From positions 95,976,001-96,040,000 of the forward strand of contig OZ024746.1 in assembly GCA_964016885.1 (NCBI GenBank): a stretch of 64,000 nucleotides of DNA, given 5' to 3'. The notes under the pieces were generated by a model that ran no database searches, had not been told where the DNA came from, and saw only the letters and a program-made list of their open reading frames with translations. Origin of the DNA: Eledone cirrhosa. Taxonomy: Eukaryota. How positions within the stretch are numbered: position 1 is the first letter of the stretch; each line of letters opens with the position of its first letter. Position numbers and translations under genes: made by a program. Below are positions 11,110 to 64,000 of the stretch, in pieces.

Positions 11110-12003
11110 AGTATGCATACACACACACATATATATATATATATCAAAATGAAAATCCGAAGGCAAGGTAAAATTTCCAATCATTTTAATCATGACACAT
11201 GTTTCAATAAGAGATAGATCGATCGTGAAGCCATGATCAATTATCACTGATCTGGTCAGGTGAAAATGAATTGTCTTCAAATTCTTGATATGAGGGAGAA
11301 AATTAGCGATGTTCACTCACAGAGTTTATTCCCTCATATGAAGATCAAGCAGTCAAAATACAGCGACTGCTATCATCATCTTTTAAGGTCATAAAACTAT
11401 CAAGCTTCTATATCCCAATAGCTGCAAAAGATGCTGGACATCAACCAAATTTGTAGAAATATAGTCAGTCACAGTTAATGTGAGTGGGTACACACACACT
11501 CAACACCGACTCGAGGTCAAAGCAAAAGATATATATACTCATACCAACGCAGTATCAAATCTGTAGAACTATAGACGGTCATAATTAGTGTGAGTGAGTA
11601 CACACACCGAAGCGATGTCAAAGAAAAAATAATAAATATAAGAATATACCAACATAGCATTCACCGAAAGTTAATTTACAAAACAACAAATGCTACATTG
11701 GTTAAATCTCAATTTGACGATGTAAATTGGAAATATTAGGTCAACACAAGCAAGTAAGTTCAGTTCAGTGTTCTGCTATACGTGTATAGATTGAATTGTA
11801 ACATCCTTATCTCCAAAAAGTGTATGTCTAGGTATATACACATCCATGTGAAGAGCAAGCAATCAGCTCATATCAAACTCAGTATGTACCGCTGTCCCAT
11901 TGAGAATCCGAGTCCCCAAATCTGTGCGTGCAAGCAACTGCTATGTAGTTGGCTCAACTTATAATAAAAAAGAAATAGGATTTCGCTTCAAGCACAGCTT
12001 CAT

Positions 12004-12054
12004 ATGCAAATGAGATTAATCACCTCATTTACACAGACGAGAAAAGTATATATT
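12004..12054 (+). promoter_or_regulatory. Candidate octamer plus TATA module upstream of an HHR
   Basis: ATGCAAAT at 12004-12011, a 34-bp spacer containing TCACCTCATTTACAC, then GTATATA at 12046. The same layout occurs at 40531->40484(-). Confidence 0.35.
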
Positions 12055-12096
12055 CTCGCCTGTCTTCTAGTCCAGCAGTCGCAAGCGGTGGGAGGG

Positions 12097-12140
12097 ACCG
12101 TCCTGACGAAGGCCAGTTAAGCCTGAAATGCATAGACGGT
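12097..12140 (+). ncRNA. Type I hammerhead ribozyme, canonical core
   Basis: ACCGTC-CTGACGA-AGGC(cagttaa)GCCT-GAAA-TGCA-TA-GACGGT. Loop III is palindromic. Stem I can extend to 12070/12163. Confidence 0.9.
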
Positions 12141-12365
12141 TGTCCCCCCTGCTTCTGCTGGACATCACCAGAGGGCGTTAGCCGCCCCCCCCCCCCCCCG
12201 GTGTTTGCATAGCTACGGCTTCCTAAAACCGTATTTCTTTTATATATATATAAGTATGCATACGCACATACATACATACATACATACATATATACATACA
12301 TACATATATATATATATATGTATATATATATATGTATGTATGTATGGGTTATATCGATCATTAAT

Positions 12366-19661: not shown

Positions 19662-21497
19662 TTTAATCTTAATGTTATTTTAATAAATATATATATCATC
19701 ATCATCATCACCGTTTTACGTCCGTTCTTCCACGCTAGCATGGGTTAGACGGCTTGTCCTGTTGTGGGCAGTGTCCGGTCGGCTGACCTTGTCTTGCTCA
19801 TACGGGAACTGATTCTGGCTTGATTTCTACAGGTGGATGCCCTTCCTAACACCAACCTCATTTACAGTGAGTGCTGGGTGCTTTTTTGCCGTGGCACCTC
19901 CACAACCACTTTTGCAGTGGAATGATAGGGACCCCAGTCCCTATCATCTCATTTCTACTGCTGAGTAAACTGGAGCAATGTGAAATAAAGTGTCTTGCTC
20001 AAGGAAATAACACATCACCCGGTATGAGAATTGAACTCACAACCTTTCGATTCCAAGCCCAATGCTCTAACCACTAAGCCACGTAGGTATAAATATGTAT
20101 ATATATATATGATGGTAAAAAAACGGGAGATTATATCTGTAGTTGGCAGAGCACTCAGTCCAAAGGACAAGTTCGGTATAAAAATCACCATCATCATTAT
20201 TATCATCATATATTATGTATAAGTACATGTCAACATGTTAAATTATACATGGGTGTGTATGCTAATATGGAAAAACAGACATAAAATGATAATGTACATA
20301 CATACATCAATGTAAAAAATGTGAATAATTTAATCACATGAGAGATAATATACAATAAAAAAATTGTATTAAAACAATGCTTCAATTATCCAATACATAT
20401 ATTTAATAAATGTCTTTTCTAAAGTATAAAATATATTTTACTAATATTGTTTCATCTATAAATAGTGAGTGATGGTGCATGACTTAGTGGTTAAAGTGTT
20501 GGCCTTACAATTAAGAGGTGTGAGTTGGATTCTAGGATCGAGTGATGCATTGTGTTCTTGAGCAAGACACTTTATTTCATGTTGCTCCGGTTTACTCAGC
20601 TGTAGAAATGAGTTGCGATGTCACTGGTGTCAAGCTGTATCGGCCATTGTCTTTCCCTTGGACAACATCAGTGGTGTGGAGAGGGTATGCATGAGCGACT
20701 GCTGGTCTTCCACAAACAAGCTTGCCCGGACTTGTGGCTCAGAGGGAAACTTTCTAGGTGCAAATCCCTGGTCACTAGTGTCCAATGGGGGCCTTATATT
20801 TAGTGATTAGAAAGTCCCATAGCAACCATGCAACATCCATTTTGAGAAAAATCTTTGCCTGCTTCGGGCCCCAAAGGGGTCTTGTATTGCCTTGCAAAAT
20901 TTCTCTTGGAGGCCCTGGGAGCAATGATAAAATGCACCCAGCATACTCTGTAAAGTGTTTTGTGATCAAACAGAAACAAGGTGTCTTAGAGAGGATTCTC
21001 ATGTTTTATTGAGTACACAAGAGAGCTTGTCATGTCTTTGATACAACTGAAGGATCCTTGCCAACTTTTAGGATAGTAGGAGCAGTGGTGGTAGGTGTGT
21101 TTCTTTACATAGAACAAAATAGTTTTTAAGGACAAAGGAAATATTCTGTAAATATGTGTGTGTATCTCTATTGTGTTAATGGACTGGTCAAGAGTTCAGA
21201 TGGGCAAAGGGAGGGATTGTAAGATAAATTCTATGGGATTGGCAACAGTAGGGTTGTAAAAGAAATTCTATTTTTGGAATATGGTTTTAGAGTGTGTGTA
21301 CGTGTGAGAGTGTATATATAAAAAAAATACACACATGTGTGTAGGGGAGGGGGAGCTTCAGCCTATAACCACTGTTTTGTATAGAACCTTACTTCCCTTT
21401 TCAAATATATATATATATATTTAGCTTTATGTTCTTTCTTATATCCTATTTTCCCTAAACCACAGGTTTTCAACCCATTTAAGCCAAATCACGAAAC

Positions 21498-23033: not shown

Positions 23034-23088
23034 TTTATCTGATGAAAGCGTACCAAAGTTTTGGTACCCTTGAAATATATATAATAGA
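23034..23088 (+). ncRNA. Type I HHR inside a long palindrome (22961-23135)
   Basis: TTTAT-CTGATGA-AAGcGTACCAAA(gt)TTTGGTACcCTT-GAAAT(atat)ATA-ATAGA. Confidence 0.8.
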
Positions 23089-32113: not shown

Positions 32114-34283
32114 TCATCATCATCATCATCATCGTTTAACGTCCATCTTCCACGCTTGCATGGGTTTGTACGGGAGTTTTCCCACTTGAGGCAAGATTTG
32201 TTGTGCTGCTCGTATAGGACTGTCTGGCGGGTTTTCTATGGCTGGATGCCCTTCCTAACACCAACCACGTTTACAGTGTGGACTGGGAGGTTTTTACCGT
32301 GTTACCTACACAGCCACATTACAGCGTGGACTGTGTGTTTTTTTGTCATGACACCTACACGACCTCATTTGTTTCGGACTGGATGTTGTGGTACCAACAT
32401 AACTTCATATTTAGGGGGGGGGGGAACTGACTGTAGGTTTCACTTTGTACTTAGGCAAGGCGGGTCTTCAGTATGACTGTGTAGCGCCAAAGATCTCGGT
32501 CCAGTGACATTGTCTTGGAGAGGTGTAAGTGTGTGAGGTCGGAATTTATCAAGTCGTCCCAGGTTTTTCTGGGTCTGCCTACTCTGTGGCTACCGTCTAT
32601 TTTTATTGCCCTGCACTTTTTTATACAGCTGTTGTCTTTCATGCGCATCACGTGACCGTACCAACATAGTCTTCTCTCGAGTAAACAACGTCTGATCCCT
32701 CTTATTCCTAATTTCTCACTTAGTTCGTTTATGCTTTGCCGTTCATGTATATTACTATTACACATCCAGCGGAGCATGCAAGCTTCGTTCCTCTCCACTC
32801 TGCGTATATTCTCTGCACACAATGCCCAAGTCTCACTGCCATGTAACATTGCTGTTCGTATGCAGGCATCATACAGCCTGCCTTTCATTTTTATAGAGAA
32901 CCCTTTAGCGGCCAATAGTGGTATAAGCTCTCTGAACTTTTTCCATCACGTTCTGACTCTAGCTACTGTACTTTCAGAGCACCCTCCCCCACTGCTAATT
33001 TTGTCACCCAGGTAACGGAAGGTGTCCACTATTTCTATAGAACCATCTGTGCAATGGAATGAGCTAGTATTCTGTGGGCACTTGCTGCTACTTATTGCAC
33101 CAGAGCACCGGCCACATATAAAATCTATATTCTTAGTTAGCTTACCTTTGATCCCACTACATCTTTTATGCATCCATACTTTGCATTTGGGACATAAAAT
33201 GGAGTTTCTGCCTACTCCTTTCCTACACACTGAGCATGGCCATTTGCCAGATGGGACCGGTGCTCTATTTTCCTTCCTACAAACTAGAACTTTAGTCTTA
33301 GACAAGTTAACCTTAAGGCCTTTTGATTCTAGGCCATGCTTCCATGTTTGGAATTTCTTCTCTAGTTCAGCCATTGATTCAGCTATGAGCGTTAGACCAT
33401 CTGCATATAGGAGTTCCCATGGGCAGCCGGTCTTGAACTCCTCTGTTATAGCCTGAAGGGCAATAATAAATAGTAGGGGGATAAGAACGGAGCCCTGATG
33501 AACACCAACTTTTACGCTAAACTCTTCACTATATTCGTTGTTAATTCTAACCTTGCTGACTGTTTCTTTATACATGGCTTACATAGCTCTCACAAGCCAT
33601 TCATCAACACCTAGTTTTCTAAGCGCCCACCAGATAATGGAGCGGGGGACTCTGTCAAAGGCTTTCTCCAAGTCAACAAAAGCTAAGTATAGGGGTTTAC
33701 TTTTAGCTAGGTACTTCTCCTGTAGTTGTCGTACAATGAAAAGAGCATCTGTGGTACTTTTACCTGACACAAACCTGAACTGCATTTCATCTAGATCAAT
33801 TCGTTCTCTGATTAGTTGCGCTATTACTTTTTCTGTGACCTTCATGACCTGGTCGATTAATTTGATGCCTCTATAGTTACTCCTATCTAGGGCATCTCCT
33901 TTACCCTTGTAGCAGTTAATGATGGTGCTGCTACGCCAGTCCTTCGGAACGGCCCCATTCTGTATGACCTGGTTTACTATCCGGGTAACCATAGTGTGTC
34001 CCACCGTTCCAGATGCTTTCAGCATTTCAGCAACTATTTCCGAAGGCCCAGCCGCCTTACCCGTCTTCATATATCTTTGATTGCCTTACTTATTATACTA
34101 CCTTCAACTAGCACTGCTGGTCCCTCTATTGGGTCGATGTGGGGGAGACTGTCTTTCTCCCATTTATTCTCCTCATTTAGTAGCCTTTCGTAGTGACACT
34201 TCCAAGCTACCTTCTTATCAGCGTCAGTGATGGCAAGTGCACCATCATCATTAAGGACACACTTCTCTCCGACAATATCACCA
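32114..34283 (-). mobile_element. 5'-truncated, inactivated RTE LINE copy
   Basis: Split ORFs with NYRGIKL, FVDLEKAFDRV, GVHQGS, YADG (catalytic Asp lost), a PHD insert and RPRKTW. (GAT)n tail. Confidence 0.93.
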
Positions 34284-40020: not shown

Positions 40021-40022
<2 letters not shown>

Positions 40023-40830
40023 AGTATGTACACATACATACATATATGTATACCGACGTACAGTAGTATGTATATATATATATATATACATACATGCACA
40101 CATATATATATATGCACGTATGGATTCACCGAACATTTATTATAATGCTCGGTGTGTTTGTAAACAAACATCCCGTATTAAGCCGTAGTGTCTAGCAACC
40201 ACCGTTGCTCGTTTGTTCAACACTGACAAAGGAACGCTGTACTAGTTTCAAGCTTGTTAGGTACATACATATATGTACGCATCAGTTTAGCGGACGCTTA
40301 TTGTAGCGCCCGCTTTGTTCGTTTGTAAACAAACTGAACAGCCTGAATTTATGCCGCATGGCGTTAAGGCAACCACGTCACCTTTTTGTTCAACACTGAC
40401 ACAGGAACGATGTACTAGTTTCAAGCTTGTTAGCTATCATCAGCACCGTATACCCATCTGCCAGATAGTTGAACGTTCGAAAGTATATACTTTCCTTATG
40501 AAAATTAACGGCTGAGCAGCCTAATTTGCATATCGAGTGAGTTAAATCGGTCAGGCGCGCCGAAAAAGATGAGTTGTAATAAAATGAAAACGAAATTTCA
40601 TTTCTCACTCTTAGTACGGCACTTACTTAAATGTAAGTATGTATGTATACGTACATACATATATGTATACAGACGTACAGTAGCATGCATATATATAGTA
40701 TACATATATACATACAGGTACACATACATATATGTACGCATCAGTTTAGCGGACGCTTATTATAGCGCCCGCTTTGTTCGTTTGTAAAACTAAACTGATG
40801 CGTACATATATGTATGTGTACCTGTATATG
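40021..40830 (-). mobile_element. Non-coding HHR-bearing element in partial tandem, with a terminal inversion
   Basis: Units 40021-40260 (diverged, cut in stem II), 40261-40715 and 40716-40788. The inverted piece 40790-40825 mirrors ~40714-40749. Flanked by (TA)n. Confidence 0.75.
40407..40449 (-). ncRNA. Type I hammerhead ribozyme, canonical core
   Basis: ACGGTG-CTGATGA-tAGCT(aaca)AGCTt-GAAA-CTAG-TA-CATCGT. Confidence 0.9.
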
Positions 40831-45473: not shown

Positions 45474-48418
45474 TGAGGAAGGCGCCAGAATCCTGGAATT
45501 CTGTGATGCAAATAACCTAACTATCTGTAACACTAACTTCAAAAAACGTGACAATCACCTGATCACCTATAGATCCGGGGAACACACAAGCCAGGTAGAT
45601 TATATCCTTACCAGAAGACGTGACAGAGTGTCTGTTGTTAACACTAAATCCCTCCCCCATGAAGAATGCACCTCCCAACATAGACTGATAATTAGCGACC
45701 TCATAGTCAGGACGAGACGTACTCGACAACAGAAGAGGACTATCCTCAGGAGGAAAATATGGAAGCTAAAGGGACCCACAGCCAGGAATAAATTTCAAAG
45801 CATATTACTTGATGCTTTCGACAGTAAGGAAGAACATTTAGAGTCGGACAATATAGAGGGAGAGTGGGAATTTCTGAAAGCAAACCTTGCTGTTGGCGAC
45901 AGACGAGGTCTGTGGCTGGAGCAGGCCTGTAGGCAGGAGGGAGAGTAACATGGTGGTGGAACAGTAAGGTGGAGGGAGTCAATTAAGGCCAAAAAGCAGG
46001 CTTGGAAAGTATGGCGGGATGGGGGAAGTAGAGAGGACTATCAAAGTGGCCAGGAGGGAAGCTAGGAGACAAGTGTACTTAGCAAGAAGGGAAGCTGAGG
46101 AAAAGAAAGTTCAAGCCATGTTCTACAACGCGATGACCAAAAACGTGAGGTGTTCAGGATTGCTAGGCAATGCGTCAAGGAAAACCGTGATATTTGTCGG
46201 GGAGAAGTGTGTACTAAACGACGATGGCACACTTGCCATCACCGACGCTGATAAGAAGGTAGCTTGGAAGTGTCACTATGAAAGGCTACTAAAATGAGGA
46301 GAATAATTGGGAGAAAGGCAGTCTCCCCCATATCGACCCAATAGAGGGACCAGCAGTGTTAGTCGAGGGGAGTATAATAAGTAAGGCAATCAAGGATATG
46401 AAGACTGGTAAGGTGGCTGGGCCTTCGGAAATAGTTGCTGAGATGCTGAAGGCATCTGGCACGGTGGGACACACCATGGTCACCCGCATAGTTAACCAAG
46501 TCGTACAGAATGGGGTTGTTCCGAAGGACTGGCATAGCAGCATCATCGTTAACTGTTATAAGGGTTAAAGGAGACGCCCTAGATAGGAGTAACTATAGAG
46601 GCATTAAATTAATCGACCAGGTCATGAAGGTCACGGAAAAGTAATAGCGCAAACTAATCAGAGAGAGAATTGACTCTAGATGAATGCAGTTCGGGTTTGT
46701 GTCAGGCAAAAGTACCACAGACGCTCTTTTCATAGTACGACAACTACAGGAGAAGTACCTAGCTAAAGGTAAACCCCTCTACTTAGCTTTTGTCGACTTG
46801 GAGAAAGCCTTCGACAGAGTCCCCCGCTCCATTATCTGGTGGGCTCTTAGAAAACTAGGCGTTGACGAATGGCTTGTGAGGGCTATACAAGCCATGTATA
46901 AAGAAACAGTCAGCAAGGTTAGAATTAACAACGAATATAGTGAAGAGTTTAGCGTAAAAGTTGGCGTCCATCAGGGCTCTGTTCTCAGTCCACTACTATT
47001 TATTATTGCCCTTCAGGCTATAACAGAGGAGTTCAAGACAGGCTGCCCATGGGAACTCCTATACGCAGACGACCTGACACTCATAGCTGAATCAATGGCC
47101 GAGCTAGAGAAGAAATTCCAAACATGGAAGCACGGCCTAGAGTCAAAAGGACTTAAAATTAACCTGGCTAAGACCAAAGTTCTAGTTTGTAGGAAAGAAA
47201 ACAAGGCGGCGGTCCCTTCTGGGAAATGGTCGTGCTCGGTGTGTAGGAAAGGCGTAGGTAGAAACTCCATTTTATGTCCTAAATGCAAAGTATGGGTGCA
47301 TAAAAGATGTAGTGGGATCACAGGTAAGCTAACTAAGAACATAGATTTTACATGTGGCCGGTGCTCTGGTGCAATAAGTAGCAGCAAGTGCCCACAAACT
47401 ACTAGCTCTTTCAATTGCGCAGAGGGTTCTATAGAAATAGTGGACAGCTTCCGTTACCTGGGCGATAAAATCAGCAGTGGGGGAGGGTGCTCTGAAAGTA
47501 CTGTAGCTAGAGTCAGAACTGGTTGGAAAAAGTTCAGAGAGCTTATACCACTATTAGCTGCTAAAGGGTTCTCACTAAAAATGAAAGGCAGGTTGTACGA
47601 TGCCTGCATACGAACAGCAATGCTGCATGGCAGTGAGACCTGGGCATTGTGTGCAGAGGATATACGCAGACTAGAGAGGAACGAAGCTTGCATGCTCCGC
47701 TGGATGTGTAACAGTAATATACGTGAACGGCAAAGCATAAACGAACTAAGGAAAAAATTAGAGATAAGAGGGATCAGATGTTGTTTACTCGAGAGAAGGC
47801 TACGTTGGTATGGACACGTGATGCGCATGAAAGTCGATAGCTGTATAACAAAGTGCAGGGCAATAAAGATAGACGGTAGTCACGGAATAGGCAGACCTAG
47901 AAAAACCTGGGACGAGCTGATAAACTCCGACATCACACACTTACACCTCTCCAAGACAATGTCACTGGACCGAGACCTTTGGCGGTACTCAGTAACAGAG
48001 AAGACCCGCCTTACCTAAATATATAGTAAAACCTACTCCAGCCAGTAGGCATCTCTAACAAAATACACCCCGTCCCACCACCACCACCCCCACCCGATCC
48101 ACACCACCCCGTTCTATGTAAAGTTATGTTGGTGCCGCGCCATCGAGGCCGAAACAAATGAGATCGTGTAGGTGTCACGACAAAAAAACACACAGTCCAC
48201 GCTGTAATGTGGCCGTGTAGGCAACACGGTAAAAACCTCCCAGACCCACACTGTAAATGTGGTTGGTGTTAGGAAGGGCATCCAACTGTAGAAAACCTGC
48301 CAGACAGTCCTATGCGAGCAAGACAATCACTCTTGCCTCAAGTGGGACTACCCCCGTCCAAACCCATGCAAGCGTGGAACACGGACGTTAAACGTTGATG
48401 ATGATGATGATGATGATA
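45474..48418 (+). mobile_element. RTE LINE, 5'-truncated within the APE endonuclease
   Basis: EGARILEFC...NTNF...SQVDYIL...SQHRL (APE C-terminal half), a frameshifted linker, an open RT region, 3' UTR and (GAT)n tail. Confidence 0.95.
46684..48018 (+). CDS. RTE reverse transcriptase, C-terminal portion, with an inserted PHD finger
   Basis: QFGF, DLEKAFD, GVHQGSVLSP, YADD, KTK, C4HC3 finger at 47233-47364, FRYLG, RWYGHV.R, GRP.KTW. Confidence 0.92.
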   Translation: MQFGFVSGKSTTDALFIVRQLQEKYLAKGKPLYLAFVDLEKAFDRVPRSIIWWALRKLGVDEWLVRAIQAMYKETVSKVRINNEYSEEFSVKVGVHQGSVLSPLLFIIALQAITEEFKTGCPWELLYADDLTLIAESMAELEKKFQTWKHGLESKGLKINLAKTKVLVCRKENKAAVPSGKWSCSVCRKGVGRNSILCPKCKVWVHKRCSGITGKLTKNIDFTCGRCSGAISSSKCPQTTSSFNCAEGSIEIVDSFRYLGDKISSGGGCSESTVARVRTGWKKFRELIPLLAAKGFSLKMKGRLYDACIRTAMLHGSETWALCAEDIRRLERNEACMLRWMCNSNIRERQSINELRKKLEIRGIRCCLLERRLRWYGHVMRMKVDSCITKCRAIKIDGSHGIGRPRKTWDELINSDITHLHLSKTMSLDRDLWRYSVTEKTRLT

Positions 48419-56178: not shown

Positions 56179-56899
56179 ATTAACACTTAGAATTTAATAT
56201 TCTATCATACTATTTCATTATAATACCATTATATATATTTTAAAGGATTGTAAATAAAACGAGTAAATCAGACAAAGTTGGAATTCCTCTTATTAATATA
56301 ATCTTCTATACACAATCATACACACCCGTGTATATTTACCTATCTATATCTATATATGTATATATGTATATATGTATATATCTATATATGTATATATCTA
56401 TATATGTATATATGTATATATCTATATATGTATATATCTATATATGTATATATCTATATATGTATATATCTATATATGTATATATCTATATATGTACATA
56501 TATATGTATATATGTATATATATATATGTATATATCAGTAATAATATAAACAGTAATTCTCTTCTCGAATGGGCCATGGTGCCCAAATCCTGAATTAAAA
56601 GACTTCGCCAGGTGGTGCTATTAAGTTAGACATGGCCTGGGCCAATACTGGCCAAAACATTTCAAAGTTATATCTATATATGTATGTGTATATATATATC
56701 TATATATGTATGTGTGTGTGTAAATATATGTATGTATTTATATATATATGTATGTATTTATATATATATGTATGTATGTATGTATATGTATATATATATG
56801 TATGTGTATATATATATGTATATATATATGTATGTATATATATATATGTATATATGTATGTGTATATATATATGTATATATATATGTATGTTTGCCATA

Positions 56900-58225
56900 T
56901 ACTTTGCAATGGTTTTCTGTATTGCATTCAGGAATTGCGAGCATGGTGTTTACATCCGATATCGAACCTCAGGCAGCATATTTAACATCAGGCGCTTTGC
57001 TGCGAAGACAAAAGTATTTACATCAGTCATAAGAGACCTCTTGTATGCAGATGATTGCGATCTTGTAGCGCACACAGAGAGTGATATGCAGCACATTTTG
57101 AATGTATTTTCTGACGCTTGCACTGCCCTGGGTTTGACTGTCAGTCTCAAGAAAACCGTCGTCATGTACCAACCTGCACCTGGTAGGCAGTACACTGAGC
57201 CAAACATCTATGTGTATGGCAAACGACTTGGAGTGGTTGATCAGTTTGTCTACCTGGGAAGCACTGTCAATCGATACGGCAACCTTGACAGTGAAATCTC
57301 ACTTAGGATTAGGAAAGCAAGTGATGCTTTCGGAAAGCTAGAAAGGCGACTCTGGGGTCGGCGAGACATATGCAGGAGGACAAAGGTAAAGGTGTACAGG
57401 GCATGTGTACTCTCTTGTCTTCTTTATGCCTGCGAGACCTGGGTCACATATCGACGCCACCTTAAGCAATTGGAGCGTTTCCATCAGATGTGTCTCAGAC
57501 GGATACATGGCGTTCGCTGGAGGGACCACATCAGTGATGTCGAGATTTTGGAAAGCTCTATGTGTGACAGTATAGAAGCTCTTGTGCTTAAGCAGCGACT
57601 CCGTTGGAGTGGTCACCTTGCCAGGATGAAGGATTCTAGAATACCAAAACAACTCTTCTATGGAGAGTTGGTTAAAGGAAAACGACCGCCACATAAACCA
57701 AAAAAGAGGTATAAGGATTTCTTGAAGGCCTCTCTGAAAGACGCTAACATCTCTGCTGATACATGGGAAAATATTGCTGCTGATCGTAATAAATGGAGAA
57801 AGACTGTATATGAGGGAAAAGTTGCCTTTGAGGCATCTCGAATCGCACACGAGAAAGTAAAGCGGGACGTGAGGAAGGGTATTGCTGTTGCACTTCCAGA
57901 CGGCGAGGGTCCTCCTATGTTTCTGACATGCAGCGTCTGTGCGAGACTCTGCCTAAGCAAAGCTGGACTCGAAAGTCATCTTCGCAGTCATAAAGTAAGA
58001 CCAGTGGTTGACTACCAGGCTGCTGTTGGAGATGCTACTCATCATGCTTGCCAAACATGTGGTAGAGAATGTAAATCAGCAGGAGGACTCAAGCGACATG
58101 CAAAAGTACACGAACTCCAACCACAGCCGACTATTCCCAGTAAATGTTTTGGTTGCCGACTCTGTGCAAGACATTTTGGATCATTGGCTGGGCTAAAAAG
58201 CCACATTCGATCGCAGCACTGTTAG
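56900..58225 (+). CDS. 5'-truncated BovB-like RTE LINE ORF (RT C-terminal half plus three C2H2 zinc fingers)
   Basis: [40 protein letters not shown]...[11 protein letters not shown], then three CxxC...HxxxH motifs. Confidence 0.9.
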
Positions 58226-58592: not shown

Positions 58593-60693
58593 CATGGCTA
58601 CCAAAAAAAAAAAATTTCATACGTCACTCCCACTCATTCCGTCTTCTTCTTCCTCAATCATCACTACAGCAGAGAGAAGATTGTCTCTCTCCCTCCCTTC
58701 TTTAAATGTGTCTCTCTCCCTCCCTTCTCTTTCGCAAGCGACGAAAGAAAAGAAAAGTCTCGTGCAAAGCGTGCAAGGTTTCTCCACGACGACGACGACA
58801 GCGACGAAACAGGTGTGCGGGAAATACGAAAACCCAGTTCATTCGTCTGACGTCAGGAATAATAGCAGTAGCAGCCGTAATAACAACAGCAACAGTGACA
58901 ATGAAAACAACAGTAGCAGCCGCAACAGCATCACCAGCAGCATAAACAACAACAGCATTAGCAGCAGCAACACCAACAACAACCACAGCAACAGCGGCGG
59001 AGGCAGTAGTCGTAGTACCTGCAGCAACAACAAAAGTACCAGCAGCTCTGACGACAACAACAACAGCAGAGAAAAACCAATCTCATTTGCAGGTATTGCG
59101 AAAAACCTGGAAACAATCCTCATAACAAATGAGGAATTAGAGGAAGCGAAGAAGATGGTGACAAAGAACGGACACCGAGCAATCTGCAAGGCAGCGAAAA
59201 ATTTTTTCGAAACCCAAGAGCACTGTACGGTCACGTACCGTACAGTAAGTACAAAATCCCGTAGGGTGGAAAGAGCCACAGAGGCCCAAATACAAAAAGC
59301 CTTGGGGTCTGTGTGGCAGAGGAAAACGCACATCACCCGAGGCAAAAAATACGCCACCGTAGACGTACTTTTTGCCACACCCCAGGAGGCAAAGGCCCAA
59401 TCAGTAGTGACCCTAAGGAGCGAGGAAATGGTGTTGGTGCCCTCCTACTGCGGGCAAAAAATTGTGAGGGTCAAACTGACCCACGTCCCCCCCGGAATGA
59501 CCCCTTCTTGGCTGGCCGCGTCTGTCCTCGTCGGAATCGAGGACAAAACAACTGTACTGCAAGTACAGAAAAAAGTAAGAGAAGATTGGGTCGGCTCCTC
59601 CATTGAGATGCTAATCCAAACCAACCAGGAGTGCATCGAAGCTATCCCGGATGTGATAGACTTCGATAACGGCACTCAACTGCCCATAAGTGTTGAGGGC
59701 AAACGCCCGAAATGCTTTCGCTGTGGATCGAAGACTCACCTCAGGGCCTTCTGCAACGAGAAGACCCTGAGAAAGGAGAAAACCCCCCTCCTCCCGAATC
59801 CGGTTCCACGGCTACCAGCAACAGGACAAGCGGCAACCAGGAACGATAGGTCCGTGGCACCCATACCCACTCCACGGAAATCAAAGACAGCAGCAGCAGT
59901 GGAAATATTAACAACAACAACAGCAATACCAAATGCAGCTGCAACAGAGACTCCAGTGCAAACATCACCAACAACAACAAGTGAAAGAGTGGAGCTGGTA
60001 CCCCTCCCCGACCTTACAGAATCAGACATGGAGTGTGAGGTGGGAGAGGGATGGCAAAAGGTCTCAAGAAGGCACAAACGCAGAAGCAGCGCATCGTCGC
60101 CTTTGAAAAGGGAGGAAAGAAATGAGAAAAGGGTAAAGTCTACTGCAAAGAGACCCACAGCAGCAACACCACCAACACCATCACCACCCACACCAGCACC
60201 ACCATCACCACCGGCGACAACCCCACCGCCAACAACACCTTCAACACCACCACCACAAGCACCAACATCGCAAACACAACAACAAAACACACACACCCAG
60301 CAACAACGACAAGAAAATAGCAGAACCACACCCCACCCCCAGAAAAACAAATGCACGGCAATAAACACACACAACAAGAAACTAATGACTTACATAATTG
60401 AACACACAGACATTTCACAACAGGACTACATAATACCAGCACCAATCAAAACGCCAACTAACATAAGACTGCTAAAAATAGCACAGAAACAATACACAAA
60501 CATTAAAACGAAATTCCCCAACGCAGTTGGTGATTTCAGGGACCTAGGAGGAACCATTAATCGAAGAGTATATTCAGACATTCTCTTAGAAGAGCCGACG
60601 ACCAGCCGAAGGGACGATTCAACGGTCCCTTCACCAGACGATCAAGTAAAAAGGGATGTAAAAACCATCCCTCCTCTACCAAAAATACGGTAA
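58593..60693 (+). CDS. L1/Tx1 LINE ORF1 (gag-like, CCHC zinc knuckle)
   Basis: AACATGG start, SFA motif, CFRCGSKTHLRAFC, WQKVSRR, Ser/Asn- and Pro-rich tracts. Lies directly upstream of ORF2. Confidence 0.85.
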
Positions 60694-60728
60694 GTGGTCT
60701 TTCCCATCTTTTCCACTCTATTTTAAAC

Positions 60729-63700
60729 ATGACCTCACTCAGAATAGGCAGCATAAATGCGCGTGGCTTGGGGTCGTCATGGAAGCAGGGTCACCTGCTC
60801 AACGACCTCAGGTCACTAAACATAGATGTAGTGGCCATCAGCGAGACCAGAATCTCCGAAGCACGGGCCTTCGCACCGATCTTCGGCGGCTACGATGTGT
60901 ACGCATCTCCCAGCCGTCCTGGATCGGGTGGAGGAGTTGCTGTGCTTTTTCGGAGAGGTTTGGATCTCGCCATACGGGCCATCTTCCTGGACCCAGAGGG
61001 TAAGCTGGTGGTGCTGGACGTGACCAGCGGAGACGGGCAAGCTTTCAGGCTAGTGGCCGTCTATGCCCCGACAGGAGCAGGGCGGCCTGATTTCTTCCGG
61101 CGTCTGGAGACCTTTCTTGGAACGTCGCGCTCTTTAGTGTTAGTGGGCGACTGGAACGGGATCTTAGATGCACGCTGGGACTGTGTGGGATTAGCGGATA
61201 GGGGTGGAGGGTGCAAGAGCCTCACCAACCTGCTCAGGCGTTTTGAACTGTCTGACAGGTACCGATTGGATTTCCCGAATGTGCCAATGTGGACTTGGAC
61301 AAACCGCATAGGGTCATCCAGATCATATCTAGATAGAGTATTTTGTAGGGAAATAGATAGGTCTAGCATAGGCTGTCCACAATTCAAGATAGTCAGCTAC
61401 ACGGACCACAAATTCGTGATCTGTGTGCTTGACTTAGATAGGCTTCATAGACGAGGACCCGGCTACTGGAAGCTAAACGCGTCCTTACCAGCGCGCAAGG
61501 CCTACAGAGACCGGATTAGCGAACTAGTTAAGCGGGCGTTGACGGGGGCCATCGTCAACAACAAGTGGTGGTTTGCTCTGAAAAGAGCGATTAGAATAGA
61601 ATCCATTAGGTTTAGTAAGGCTTTAGCAATAGAGAAAAATAGAGCAGAGGGAGAACTAGTTAGAAAATTAGACGAGGCGCTTAGCAAAGGCATTGCGACC
61701 GACGTGCTTGCGGCGAAATTGGCCCTTGACCAATTCTTCAATGCAAAGCACGAAGGCTGCGTTGTCAGAGCTAGGGTGCGTGCTCTCAGACACGAGGGGA
61801 CGAAAGCCGTTCAATGGGCCCGAGTGGCGGAGGCGCGTCGTGGCAACAAAGCCACGATCCGGTCTTTGGTGGACCACGACGGGCGCATGCTACTCGATCC
61901 CGGGCAAATGTGTGAAGCTTTTCAGCGACACTTCGCTCAGCTGTTCGGGGGCAGCGGGGGGCCGGGTAGAGGGATGGACTTTAGTGTCTACCTCGACGGA
62001 CTGCCGCGGCTCTCGGCCACTGAGGCGAAGTGTTGCGAAAAGCCGATAACAGCCGCTGAAGTAAGGGAGGCAATGACTGGCTGCACAAGGGGTAAATCGC
62101 CTGGTTTGGATGGTCTGCCCTATGAACTTTACGTACAGATGCCAGACTTGTTCGGAGGCCTCTTGGCGGACGTCTACTGCAACTGGCAACAGAACGGGAG
62201 AATTCCCAGTTCTGTGAGCCGAGGAGCGGTGGCACTGCTGAGAAAGGATCCGAACAAGGGGGATAACATAGACAATTTCCGGCCCATAACTCTGCTAAAC
62301 ACAGAGTTTAAGATTTTGGCCAAGGTGCTAGCAAAGAGGTTGGCGCTTGTCGTTGGTGGTCTGGTGGGAGAGGCGCAGACATGCGCCATTCCCGACAGAT
62401 CCATCCACGACAACCTCCACCTCATGCGATACATCGTAGAGAGGGTAGCTAGGGAACCTGGCACGGGTGGGTCCTTGATCAATTTAGATCAGTCGAAAGC
62501 TTTCGATAGGGTCGACCATCGTTACCTAGCGGCAGTCCTGAGGGCGGCTGGCTTTGGGCCCGTCTTCAGAGGCTGGATCGCTGCCATGCACAGCGACATC
62601 TGCTCTGTGGTGAGAGTGAACGGTCACCTGTCGGAACCGTTCAACATCATGCGCTCGGTCCGCCAAGGATGTCCCCTCTCGTCCCTCTTGTACGTATTGA
62701 CTCTCGAGCCATTACTGCACAAACTGGAGACGTTGAGGGGAGTCCCGCGCGAACTAGGATGCGGAAGATCCGTGTCAGCATATGCGGACGATGTCACCGT
62801 AGTGGTGTCGAACGCCAAACACATCGAGGCGATCGGCACTACACTAAGAGAATACGAAGCGGTGACAGGAGCAATGATCAACCAGGAAAAGTCAGTGGGC
62901 CTGCAGCTCGGCACCTGGAGAGGCAGGTCCATGCCGTCCAACAGCGTCGTCGGGCGCTGGACGGACGGACCGGTTAAATTGCTAGGGGTCTGGTTCGGTC
63001 CGGACCTCCAGACGGACAAAAACTGGGACGAGGTGACGAGCAGGGTGGCTTCTCTCACCCAGAAATGGGCGGAGAGGAAGCTATCCCTGAAAGGTCGAGC
63101 GGAGGTGGCTAACGCGTACATCGCGTCTGTCATCTGCTACCGCCTAACCGTCGTACCTTGTCCTAAGCCTCGCCTGACTGCGCTGGAGCGTTTGCTCTTT
63201 CGCTTTTTGTGGAAGGGACGTGCTCCGATGGTCAGGCGGTCCATCTGTTGTCAACACCCGCTACGTGGAGGGCTGGGCATGCCGTGGCTGATGATGCGCA
63301 GGCACGCGCTCAGGCTACGACATCTCCACCTCTTCCTCGACGGTGATCAGGTGTGGTCGCCGTTTGCTAGACGCGTTTTTCCCCAGCTCGTTTCCTTGAC
63401 GGAGCTGCAGTCCTGGGTCAAGCGAAGACCGAGAGGGAGCGCCTGGAGACTGGAATGTCTTCAGGCGCTCACAGCCCTCGACCAATCGGGCAATGTGATC
63501 GGTGGAAACTCCACCTCGGCGTTCTATAGAGGATTAGTGGAGGGGAAGAGCGACGACGTACTTGGGGAAACTCTAGGCGTCGACGAAAATCAACTAGCCA
63601 ATCTCTTCGGAAGAACCTTCGGGCCAGGGCCTATGGACAACTTCCAGAAATCTCTGGCCTGGCAGTGCTACCGAGGAGCCTTGCCAGTTCGGGATAAACT

Positions 63701-64000
63701 CTACAGGCATGGAGGTGCCGTCAGCCGGGCATGTCCGAGATGCGCGCAGGGCGACGAAACCGTCCTGCACGCACTCGTCCAGTGTCCGAAAATTGCTGAC
63801 TTGTGGGTTTATGTCGAACACCTGCTGTCGCGTTTAGGACGGATCCAGCTATCATCTGAGTCTATCGTGAGGATTGCCCCGCCCTCCTCCTTTAGCCGGG
63901 AAGGGCAGGCAGTTTTTATCTGTCTGGTGGCCATGGCGAAAGAGATAGTATGGTGGACACGTTTGAAAGGGCTGAAGACGAGCACTTACCTCTTCGGTGA
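60729..64000 (+). CDS. L1/Tx1 LINE ORF2 (APE endonuclease, RT, Cys/His motif), runs off the window
   Basis: MTSLRIGSINARGL, VYAP, GDWN, LDR, TDH, YWKLN, KSPGLDG, NFRPITLLN, DQSKAFDRV, VRQGCPLS, AYADD, CPRC..ETVLH..C. The frame at 60729 matches the frame at 64000. Confidence 0.93.
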   Translation, partial: MTSLRIGSINARGLGSSWKQGHLLNDLRSLNIDVVAISETRISEARAFAPIFGGYDVYASPSRPGSGGGVAVLFRRGLDLAIRAIFLDPEGKLVVLDVTSGDGQAFRLVAVYAPTGAGRPDFFRRLETFLGTSRSLVLVGDWNGILDARWDCVGLADRGGGCKSLTNLLRRFELSDRYRLDFPNVPMWTWTNRIGSSRSYLDRVFCREIDRSSIGCPQFKIVSYTDHKFVICVLDLDRLHRRGPGYWKLNASLPARKAYRDRISELVKRALTGAIVNNKWWFALKRAIRIESIRFSKALAIEKNRAEGELVRKLDEALSKGIATDVLAAKLALDQFFNAKHEGCVVRARVRALRHEGTKAVQWARVAEARRGNKATIRSLVDHDGRMLLDPGQMCEAFQRHFAQLFGGSGGPGRGMDFSVYLDGLPRLSATEAKCCEKPITAAEVREAMTGCTRGKSPGLDGLPYELYVQMPDLFGGLLADVYCNWQQNGRIPSSVSRGAVALLRKDPNKGDNIDNFRPITLLNTEFKILAKVLAKRLALVVGGLVGEAQTCAIPDRSIHDNLHLMRYIVERVAREPGTGGSLINLDQSKAFDRVDHRYLAAVLRAAGFGPVFRGWIAAMHSDICSVVRVNGHLSEPFNIMRSVRQGCPLSSLLYVLTLEPLLHKLETLRGVPRELGCGRSVSAYADDVTVVVSNAKHIEAIGTTLREYEAVTGAMINQEKSVGLQLGTWRGRSMPSNSVVGRWTDGPVKLLGVWFGPDLQTDKNWDEVTSRVASLTQKWAERKLSLKGRAEVANAYIASVICYRLTVVPCPKPRLTALERLLFRFLWKGRAPMVRRSICCQHPLRGGLGMPWLMMRRHALRLRHLHLFLDGDQVWSPFARRVFPQLVSLTELQSWVKRRPRGSAWRLECLQALTALDQSGNVIGGNSTSAFYRGLVEGKSDDVLGETLGVDENQLANLFGRTFGPGPMDNFQKSLAWQCYRGALPVRDKLYRHGGAVSRACPRCAQGDETVLHALVQCPKIADLWVYVEHLLSRLGRIQLSSESIVRIAPPSSFSREGQAVFICLVAMAKEIVWWTRLKGLKTSTYLFG

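Follow-up and report, generated by a model that had tools for sequence, protein, structure and literature searches.

Hammerhead ribozyme repeats of Eledone cirrhosa with a predicted internal snRNA-type promoter

Two hammerhead elements in the window

The window, a stretch of 64,000 nucleotides from the genome of Eledone cirrhosa, contains two hammerhead ribozyme elements on opposite strands, each preceded by an octamer and a TATA box. A pattern search of this 64-kb window located ATGCAAAT followed by 34 bp and GTATATA at 12004-12052 on the plus strand (site A), and ATGCAAAT followed by 33 bp and GTATATA at 40531-40484 on the minus strand (site B). With any spacer of 25-45 nt allowed, these are exactly the two matches in the window, against 0.08 expected, and none of 100 shuffles of the window attained two. 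The arrangement that an earlier note on this DNA had described upstream of both hammerheads is therefore present. The octamer that it named occurs at both sites, but the common motif is longer, ATGCAAATKAG (here called the box). The surroundings of the two sites do not align, as had been noted: a comparison of the repeat monomers to which they belong (families A and B) gives a best blastn E value of 0.78, with pieces of just 7-18 nt.

At site A, a retrozyme-like element corresponding to the forward part of a 333-nt family A monomer occupies 11995-12240 (plus strand) and is 3'-truncated at TTTCTTT. Its sister copies are 95-97% identical, and the tandem period of 333 is seen in locus L041. The same monomer also supplies an inverted 5' piece with its T6 tract, at 11947-11994 (minus strand), which has the form of a Penelope-type inverted 5' end. 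The box ATGCAAATGAG (12004-12014) recurs letter for letter at -76/-77 in one U6 gene and in the MRP gene; the GTATATA box lies at 12046-12052, with a predicted +1 at about 12077. A weak PSE-core-like word, TCACC... (12020-12032), is located 26 bp before the TATA (p 0.06); in the predicted fold it is partly the loop and 3' arm of an RNA hairpin formed with the box. The type I hammerhead (12098-12139) is composed of CUGACGA, stem II, GAAA and a palindromic UGCA loop, with a predicted cut after AUA at 12134. It is enclosed by a long stem (12070-12163) with the arms GTCCAGCAG (12070-78) and CTGCTGGAC (12155-63), all on the plus strand. One antisense stop-free frame overlies the site.

The 3' junction of the element is formed by a (TA)/(TACA) microsatellite (12241-12346), the likely insertion target. 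The paired segment had been noted to end in TTTCTTTT. We rejected this sequence as a family A terminator: because the copy in the window stops at TTTCTTT, where the TA target starts, TTTCTTTT is a product of the junction. Sister copies have TTTCTTTGG; the (TA)n target contributes the fourth T. The family's own T6 run is found about 60 nt beyond TTTCTTTT, at about +223.

At site B, a family B insertion (40021-40798, minus strand) comprises a partial monomer, a full promoter-hammerhead unit and a second partial copy, which is of the older B2 subtype and has no CUGAUGA. An inverted 5' piece of family B lies at approximately 40790-40827 (plus strand). On the minus strand, the box ATGCAAATTAG (40521-40531) recurs unchanged in one U6 gene and in both tRNA-Sec genes. 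A PSE-core-like word, TCAGC... (40503-40515), lies 25 bp before the TATA (p 0.015) and doubles as the 3' arm of a hairpin in the predicted fold. The GTATATA box (40484-40490) sits inside a GAAAG/CTTTC palindrome, with a predicted +1 at about 40459. The type I hammerhead (40408-40448), with CUGAUGA, a U-U-closed stem II, GAAA and a palindromic CUAG loop, has a predicted cut after GUA at 40413 and is surrounded by a GTTCAAC/GTTGAAC stem (40388-40474). The earlier note cautioned that the extended stems begin upstream of the expected start site, and indeed they begin 7 nt (A) and 15 nt (B) before the predicted +1.

The paired segment of site A, with its stem, enclosed hammerhead and further hairpins, folds as had been proposed (z -2.5); the corresponding value for site B is -1.6. 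Both hammerhead cores are intact, but the description of a perfect hammerhead needs qualification, in that stem III consists of one base pair with the palindromic tetraloop in both ribozymes, and stem II of the site B ribozyme has a U-U pair at its base. Rfam returned no hammerhead match at site A, and at site B an HH9 match below threshold (18.6 bits, with a cut-off of 52). According to the accessible text of PMC7229834, hammerheads with a one-pair stem III and a palindromic loop cleave well only as dimers in newt and axolotl.

Other features of the window were also recorded. No hammerhead is among the 150 of 441 Rfam matches listed for it, in which TA-repeat microRNA matches dominate, and ARAGORN found no tRNA. 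A tRNA-like Rfam match at 20016-20088 (minus strand, 40.8 bits), without an ARAGORN call, is probably a tRNA-derived repeat. A LINE-type frame with endonuclease, RT and zinc-finger regions spans 60561-63998 (plus strand; 1146 codons, open up to the window end). Of the further LINE-type frames at 46684-48015 (plus strand), 32949-34085 (minus strand) and 56630-58222 (plus strand), two are copies that encode an RT with a PHD finger behind it, and one encodes an RT fragment with C2H2 fingers. Three more hammerhead-like motifs, at 23038 (plus), 56144 (plus) and 27905 (minus), have no box; their types also occur in the random sample described below.

Repeat families that carry the module

A and B are two unrelated, abundant tandem and dispersed families of the non-LTR retrozyme type. 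First-look searches of the 3.0-Gb genome gave 2697 candidates for family A, of which 40 were scored and were mostly 95-97% identical, and 752 for family B. A random 600 kb held two A and seven B-type hammerheads, and the true copy numbers probably lie, as a rough estimate, between thousands and tens of thousands. The units are dispersed or arranged head-to-tail in arrays of two to six, with a period of 333 nt for A, 466-522 nt for B (with an internal TA tract) and about 430 nt for the older B2. Each unit of both families contains a type I hammerhead, below the Rfam thresholds. The monomers are short, and no coding region, LTR, PBS or PPT was noticed in them.

Insertions of A and B often include inverted, 5'-truncated pieces, and they end in (TA)n. 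Their 5' ends are spread around the monomer and run through the cut site, and their 3' ends are concentrated between the hammerhead and the following promoter. All 39 family A blocks longer than 200 nt end at monomer offsets 234-318, and 41 of 42 family B blocks longer than 300 nt at offsets 292-428, in counts that include overlapping loci and with queries that bias the ends downstream. A GAAAT...TTTC hairpin and a U-tract, common to A, B and the families C and F introduced below, lie beside the clustered 3' ends. Partial tandems, inverted 5' pieces and (TA)n targets have been described for Penelope-like elements (10.1101/2021.04.23.441226, accessible part). GIY-YIG open reading frames were present in 3 of 15 random loci with frames scanned (56 of 100 frames); this GIY-YIG scan of the 15 loci found no autonomous partner element. 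The retrozyme characters of the two families are thus the type I hammerhead, short tandem and dispersed units, a predicted self-paired circular fold, and the occurrence of GIY-YIG frames and Penelope-type insertions. In one B array (L089), about 40 bp of the upstream flank recurs inverted downstream of the insertion, resembling the 'tail' described for Penelope-like elements.

The earlier suggestion that the promoter is external to the hammerhead element does not stand, as the module lies inside the repeated monomer and moves with it. Its spacing, on the other hand, is kept in further copies: among the best matches to the window sequence, 28 of 30 A copies and all 30 B copies retain it, with up to two mismatches allowed in the box and one in the TATA.

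The module extends beyond these two families. A genome-wide search for the box-TATA pattern, excluding typical A and B copies, gave 485 matches, compared with 2 in a reversed control; a second such pattern gave 206, compared with 1, and recovered the MRP gene as a positive control. In 50 loci of the larger set (the first 30, and 20 chosen for diversity), a hammerhead core follows downstream, exact in 15 and with one mismatch in 28, over backgrounds of 0.4% and 1.8%, respectively. TATA-like words are common in this TA-rich genome, which could suggest a chance coincidence, or else two stand-alone non-coding RNA genes each with an external promoter. With thousands of copies bearing the module, and 485 matches against 2, we regard either explanation as extremely unlikely; both are refuted by the copy structure.

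The module precedes hammerheads in at least six repeat families, of which C, D and E were defined from the fetched loci. Family C (466 nt, spacer 32) is a distant relative of B. Family D (about 350 nt, spacer 38; loci L126, L128, L146, L148 and L186) is older and has exactly the U6 spacing, with a T5-T8 run about 10 nt behind the hammerhead cut site. Family E has spacers of 33-35. Family F (L290-L304; 1385 candidates, spacer 34) was found in the random sample; it has three 33-bp octamer units and an exact PSE core, and GCATATA replaces GTATATA. What these otherwise unalignable families mainly have in common is the 11-mer and the TATA, which keep a near-constant spacing and lie 40-55 nt before the hammerhead core.

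Among 31 hammerhead-like motifs in the random 600 kb, the box precedes 4 of the 7 of B type, neither of the 2 truncated A copies, and 1 of the 22 others, which is family F. The module is thus a property of the short families and not of every hammerhead. For two hammerheads without a box, a GIY-YIG frame follows on the same strand at a distance of 2.5-3.4 kb.

These data also bear on the explanation that the elements are retrozymes in which box and TATA no longer act as a promoter, but are a remnant or a motif for folding or protein binding at the RNA level, with transcription supplied by flanking host units. In the predicted folds, the box pairs as the 5' arm of a hairpin, and a hairpin loop holds the TATA, with flanks that differ between families and stay complementary. 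In addition, the copies found by similarity are young, so that retention of the module says little on selection. However, the same 11-mer and TATA recur across unalignable families, they match upstream DNA of host genes that is not transcribed, and in the random sample the box precedes the B and F hammerheads counted above. We consider this explanation improbable.

A few matches lie outside the families. Two non-family matches of the set of 206 were fetched: one is a rearranged B2 copy and the other, before a SINE-like repeat, is unexplained; Rfam found nothing in these two loci nor in nine other odd loci. Two further promoters with box and PSE core (L178:1037-1084 and L056:43-90; spacer 33) resemble family A in the promoter alone and have no clear hammerhead behind them. 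A metagenome scan for box, TATA and core gave eight stretches, one of which has a loose downstream GAAA and none a convincing hammerhead; we took these as chance matches.

Native promoters and the choice of polymerase

We compared the module with the upstream DNA of the U6, U6atac, MRP, RNase P, 7SK, SRP, tRNA-Sec, U1, U2, U3, U4, U5, U11, U12 and U4atac genes of this genome. Likely pseudogenes were left out, namely U6 and U6atac copies that lack both elements or have a SINE replacing the box. In all seven distinct U6, U6atac, MRP and tRNA-Sec promoters, ATGSWAATKAG is found at -76 to -79 and GTATAWA at -31/-32, separated by 37-39 bp, and +1 falls 31-33 bp after the G of the TATA. Because these native promoters combine the box with GTATAWA, the motif seen in the window counts as a genuine promoter-type element in this animal, and the likeness to snRNA-type promoters that had been pointed out is supported. 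No box was found at the corresponding position in 13 U1, U2 and U5 promoters, nor in those of U4, U11, U12, U4atac, SRP, 7SK and RNase P. In the U6 array, every 1.8-kb unit apparently contains, about 480 nt past the U6 start, another U6-type promoter (spacer 37; L005:1981-2033) that is followed by no recognised gene, and in some units a SINE has taken the position of the U6 box.

The promoters without the box differ in the position of the PSE core. U1, U2, U4, U5 and U12, the Pol II snRNA genes, have YCAGY at -55 to -58, which is 24-27 bp before a TATA-like word near -31, and an AATTA word at about -89. In 7SK and RNase P, TCAGT lies 31-32 bp before the TATA, and both genes end in T8; the only 7SK candidate (L249:1501-1779, Rfam 45.1 bits) has a TATA, a PSE core and the T8 terminator. 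The distance between PSE and TATA may therefore set the choice of polymerase, with 24-27 bp in Pol II snRNA genes and 31-32 bp in 7SK and RNase P. In insects, PSE-TATA spacing is tightly kept, and the PSE sequence helps to set the polymerase (PMC1761439, accessible part). In U3, a degenerate box (2-3 mismatches) precedes GTATATA by 33 bp. The U3 promoters (upstream in L322-L327) have in common a 30-bp conserved block with the degenerate box and an ACGTCA word. Three of the four U3 copies examined have no T4 run in the 70 nt downstream, and one has a T7 right behind; by analogy with other animals, we take U3 of this genome to be a Pol II gene. This grammar of box, PSE core, TATA and spacing may be of use for U6-driven expression tools.

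Classification of the module as a type 3 Pol III promoter, as put forward earlier, agrees with box and TATA, which are those of the native U6 type, but not with the box-TATA spacing, which at 34 bp (A) and 33 bp (B) is 4-6 bp shorter than in the seven native box-bearing Pol III promoters. This spacing matches U3 instead. In comparisons anchored at the TATA, moreover, no native promoter matches A, B, B2, C, E, F and the promoter in L178 better than U3 (18-23 of 44, with small margins or ties), and family D is closest to tRNA-Sec/U6. In five of nine element promoters (A, B, F, L178 and one E copy), a PSE-core profile scores best 25-26 bp before the TATA, with a p value of 0.0008 for F; it does not peak there in C, D and two of the three E copies, and the core is absent from C, D and one of the three E copies. 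For 7SK, RNase P, one tRNA-Sec gene and the U6 array, the best score of this profile lies 31-32 bp before the TATA. The profile was built from 16 native Pol II PSE cores and sought post hoc, and a prior 13-site version gave p values of about 0.08 each for A and B. The PSE-like words that had been noticed in the two spacers are indeed the best PSE-core matches in their promoters, though weak: they score -2.3 bits (A) and 1.7 bits (B), compared with 6-21 bits for native sites (leave-one-out, 13-site profile). By inspection, the elements have no AATTA word near -89.

We consider it quite probable that the module is an active internal snRNA-type promoter, as predicted from these similarities. A plain U6-type Pol III promoter, at first the preferred reading, became less likely in view of U3, U4, U12 and family F. 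The closest competitor to our present reading keeps the same retrozyme cycle and sees in the module a compact type 3 (U6-like) Pol III promoter, from which most transcripts would stop at T-runs and rare read-through would feed the circles. The exact box is native to Pol III genes only (U6, U6atac, MRP and tRNA-Sec; 2-3 mismatches in U3), family D shows U6 spacing, the predicted +1 is a pyrimidine-purine step in both A and B, and many 3' ends lie at or just past T-rich tracts. Moreover, the second half of the box, AATKAG, is itself PSE-core-like and lies 33-35 bp before the TATA, between the distances in 7SK/RNase P (31-32) and U6 (38-40). On the other hand, spacers of 32-34 bp fall outside the native range of 37-39 bp, and A and B have no PSE core at 30-33 bp before the TATA (p 0.79 and 0.78). 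Because A and B show neither native spacing (37-39 bp from box to TATA, or 31-32 bp from PSE to TATA), we do not file them as type 3 Pol III promoters. T5-T6 runs occur inside the A, B2, C and F monomers, so that Pol III would stop before a second hammerhead; the T6 inside A would cut short the multimers that the palindromic stem III and inheritance of the promoter need. Young B copies, conversely, have no run above T4, which also counts against a Pol III unit. Family D, in which U6 spacing is combined with T5-T8 just behind the hammerhead, has nevertheless been amplified. On balance, a compact Pol III promoter is a possible but less likely explanation for the elements. For A and B the promoter sequences place Pol II ahead of Pol III by about 2 to 1, and Pol II is accordingly the somewhat favoured polymerase if the promoter is active.

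A proposed cycle and comparison with known systems

Folded as circles, the monomers show strong predicted structure, with z values of -6.3 for A and -9.0 for B (25 shuffles each) and -11.7 for C; an old D copy gave -1.4. L137:201-553, folded along with these, proved not to be a D monomer and was disregarded. An alignment of B and C (six related rows) has two-sided changes at 11 of the 44 pairs predicted. In A, B and C, the stems closing the hammerhead domain begin ahead of +1, and hence would form only in RNA that contains the promoter, either read-through or circular. If the folded RNA is of this kind, the caveat about stems that begin before the start site is explained.

We propose that these elements are mobile hammerhead repeats with an internal snRNA-type promoter, more likely served by Pol II, whose transcripts are cut and circularised and which move by Penelope-type retrotransposition; we assign a probability of roughly 0.52 to this reading as a whole. 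Transcription would start about 31 bp after the G of the TATA in one unit and cross the promoter of the next, and the read-through transcripts would be cut by paired hammerheads, as dimers. Because transcription runs through the next unit's promoter, the hammerhead-to-hammerhead monomer would include a promoter. The monomers would be ligated, likely into circles. A Penelope-type RT/endonuclease, presumably from a partner element, could then prime at (TA)n sites, and reverse transcription around the circle would restore promoter and ribozyme, often as partial tandems. Several arrays have private variants that are shared among their units, as expected from rolling on one template; two arrays (L087 and L069) deviate, with within-array differences of 4-5 compared with 2.5-4 between arrays. 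Such a cycle would explain how an upstream-type promoter, which is normally lost on retrotransposition, outlasts it, and would provide a route for its inheritance.

A real promoter could also operate without a circle, with uncut linear multimers as the template or tandem duplication at the DNA level after a SINE-like insertion. The clustered 3' ends beside the common GAAAT...TTTC hairpin and U-tract (A, B, C and F) fit a linear template, and hammerheads with a one-pair stem III are weak as monomers (PMC7229834, accessible part). The strong predicted circular folds, with stems that cross the start site, argue against this explanation, as does the finding, in the accessible part of the same paper, that the retrozymes assayed exist mainly as circles. 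We therefore judge it distinctly improbable.

More tentatively, we speculate that the proposed cycle with circular RNA describes a superfamily of retroposons with a chimeric promoter assembled from host parts (the box of Pol III genes, a PSE core and a TATA), in which box and TATA are hidden in hairpins of the circle. In this wider proposal, the spacing would be tuned to switch the polymerase, of the U3/Pol II type in A, B, C, E and F and of the U6/Pol III type in D. If true, a gene-external promoter would have found a way to become retrotransposable, and the families would form a natural spacing series for polymerase choice.

The following comparisons draw on the accessible parts of the published sources. 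The repeats resemble metazoan non-LTR retrozymes (PMC7229834; 10.64898/2026.07.22.740005) in being short, apparently non-coding units, tandem as well as dispersed, that each contain one type I hammerhead, in the predicted self-paired circular fold and in the co-occurrence with Penelope-like elements. Axolotl hammerheads are similar to those of A and B in the palindromic stem III of one pair, and to that of B in the U-U in stem II (PMC7229834). In animal tissues, circles of retrozymes can reach very high abundance, and how they are transcribed is not stated in these parts of the two papers. Their main texts describe no retrozyme promoter (the word 'promoter' occurs twice in the first, both times for T7, and 0 times in the second), and their supplements may bear on novelty. 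Literature searches, in which subscription papers were thinly covered, gave no description of an snRNA-type promoter in invertebrate retrozymes, and newt satellite 2 was the only case of an snRNA-type promoter that they found.

Newt satellite 2 (Coats, Zhang and Epstein, 1994, as cited in PMC2220036 and PMC6765202) is likewise a tandem repeat with hammerheads, and its internal snRNA-type promoter is reported to drive Pol II transcription. It is one amphibian family, whereas here, in an invertebrate, several unalignable families carry a TATA, together with a box that natively marks Pol III genes; the U6 spacing of family D is a further difference. The Sm-alpha and Sj-alpha hammerhead SINEs of Schistosoma also have a promoter and then a hammerhead in each repeat, and their multimers are cut by the ribozyme (PMC6765202); their promoter is of the Pol III SINE type, in contrast to the predicted upstream-type snRNA promoter carried inside the unit here. 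Penelope-like elements (Craig et al., 2021; 10.1101/2021.04.23.441226) share partial tandems, inverted 5'-truncated copies and (TA)n targets with A and B, which differ from them in that no RT/GIY-YIG coding capacity was noticed.

The SINE-type promoter of Sm-alpha and Sj-alpha consists of tRNA-like A and B boxes. The elements described here instead share the box ATGCWAATKAG and GTATATA with the U6, U6atac, MRP and tRNA-Sec genes of their host, and with U3, in which the box is degenerate, the 33-bp spacing. In A and B, the arrangement is 4-6 bp shorter than the host U6 type and has a PSE-core-like word at the distance found in U1, U2, U4, U5 and U12. The module is a real feature of these repeats, and its sequence suggests its function. 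At least six families here carry a promoter module of the host snRNA type, and one defined promoter across several unrelated families makes the transcription of retrozymes directly testable.
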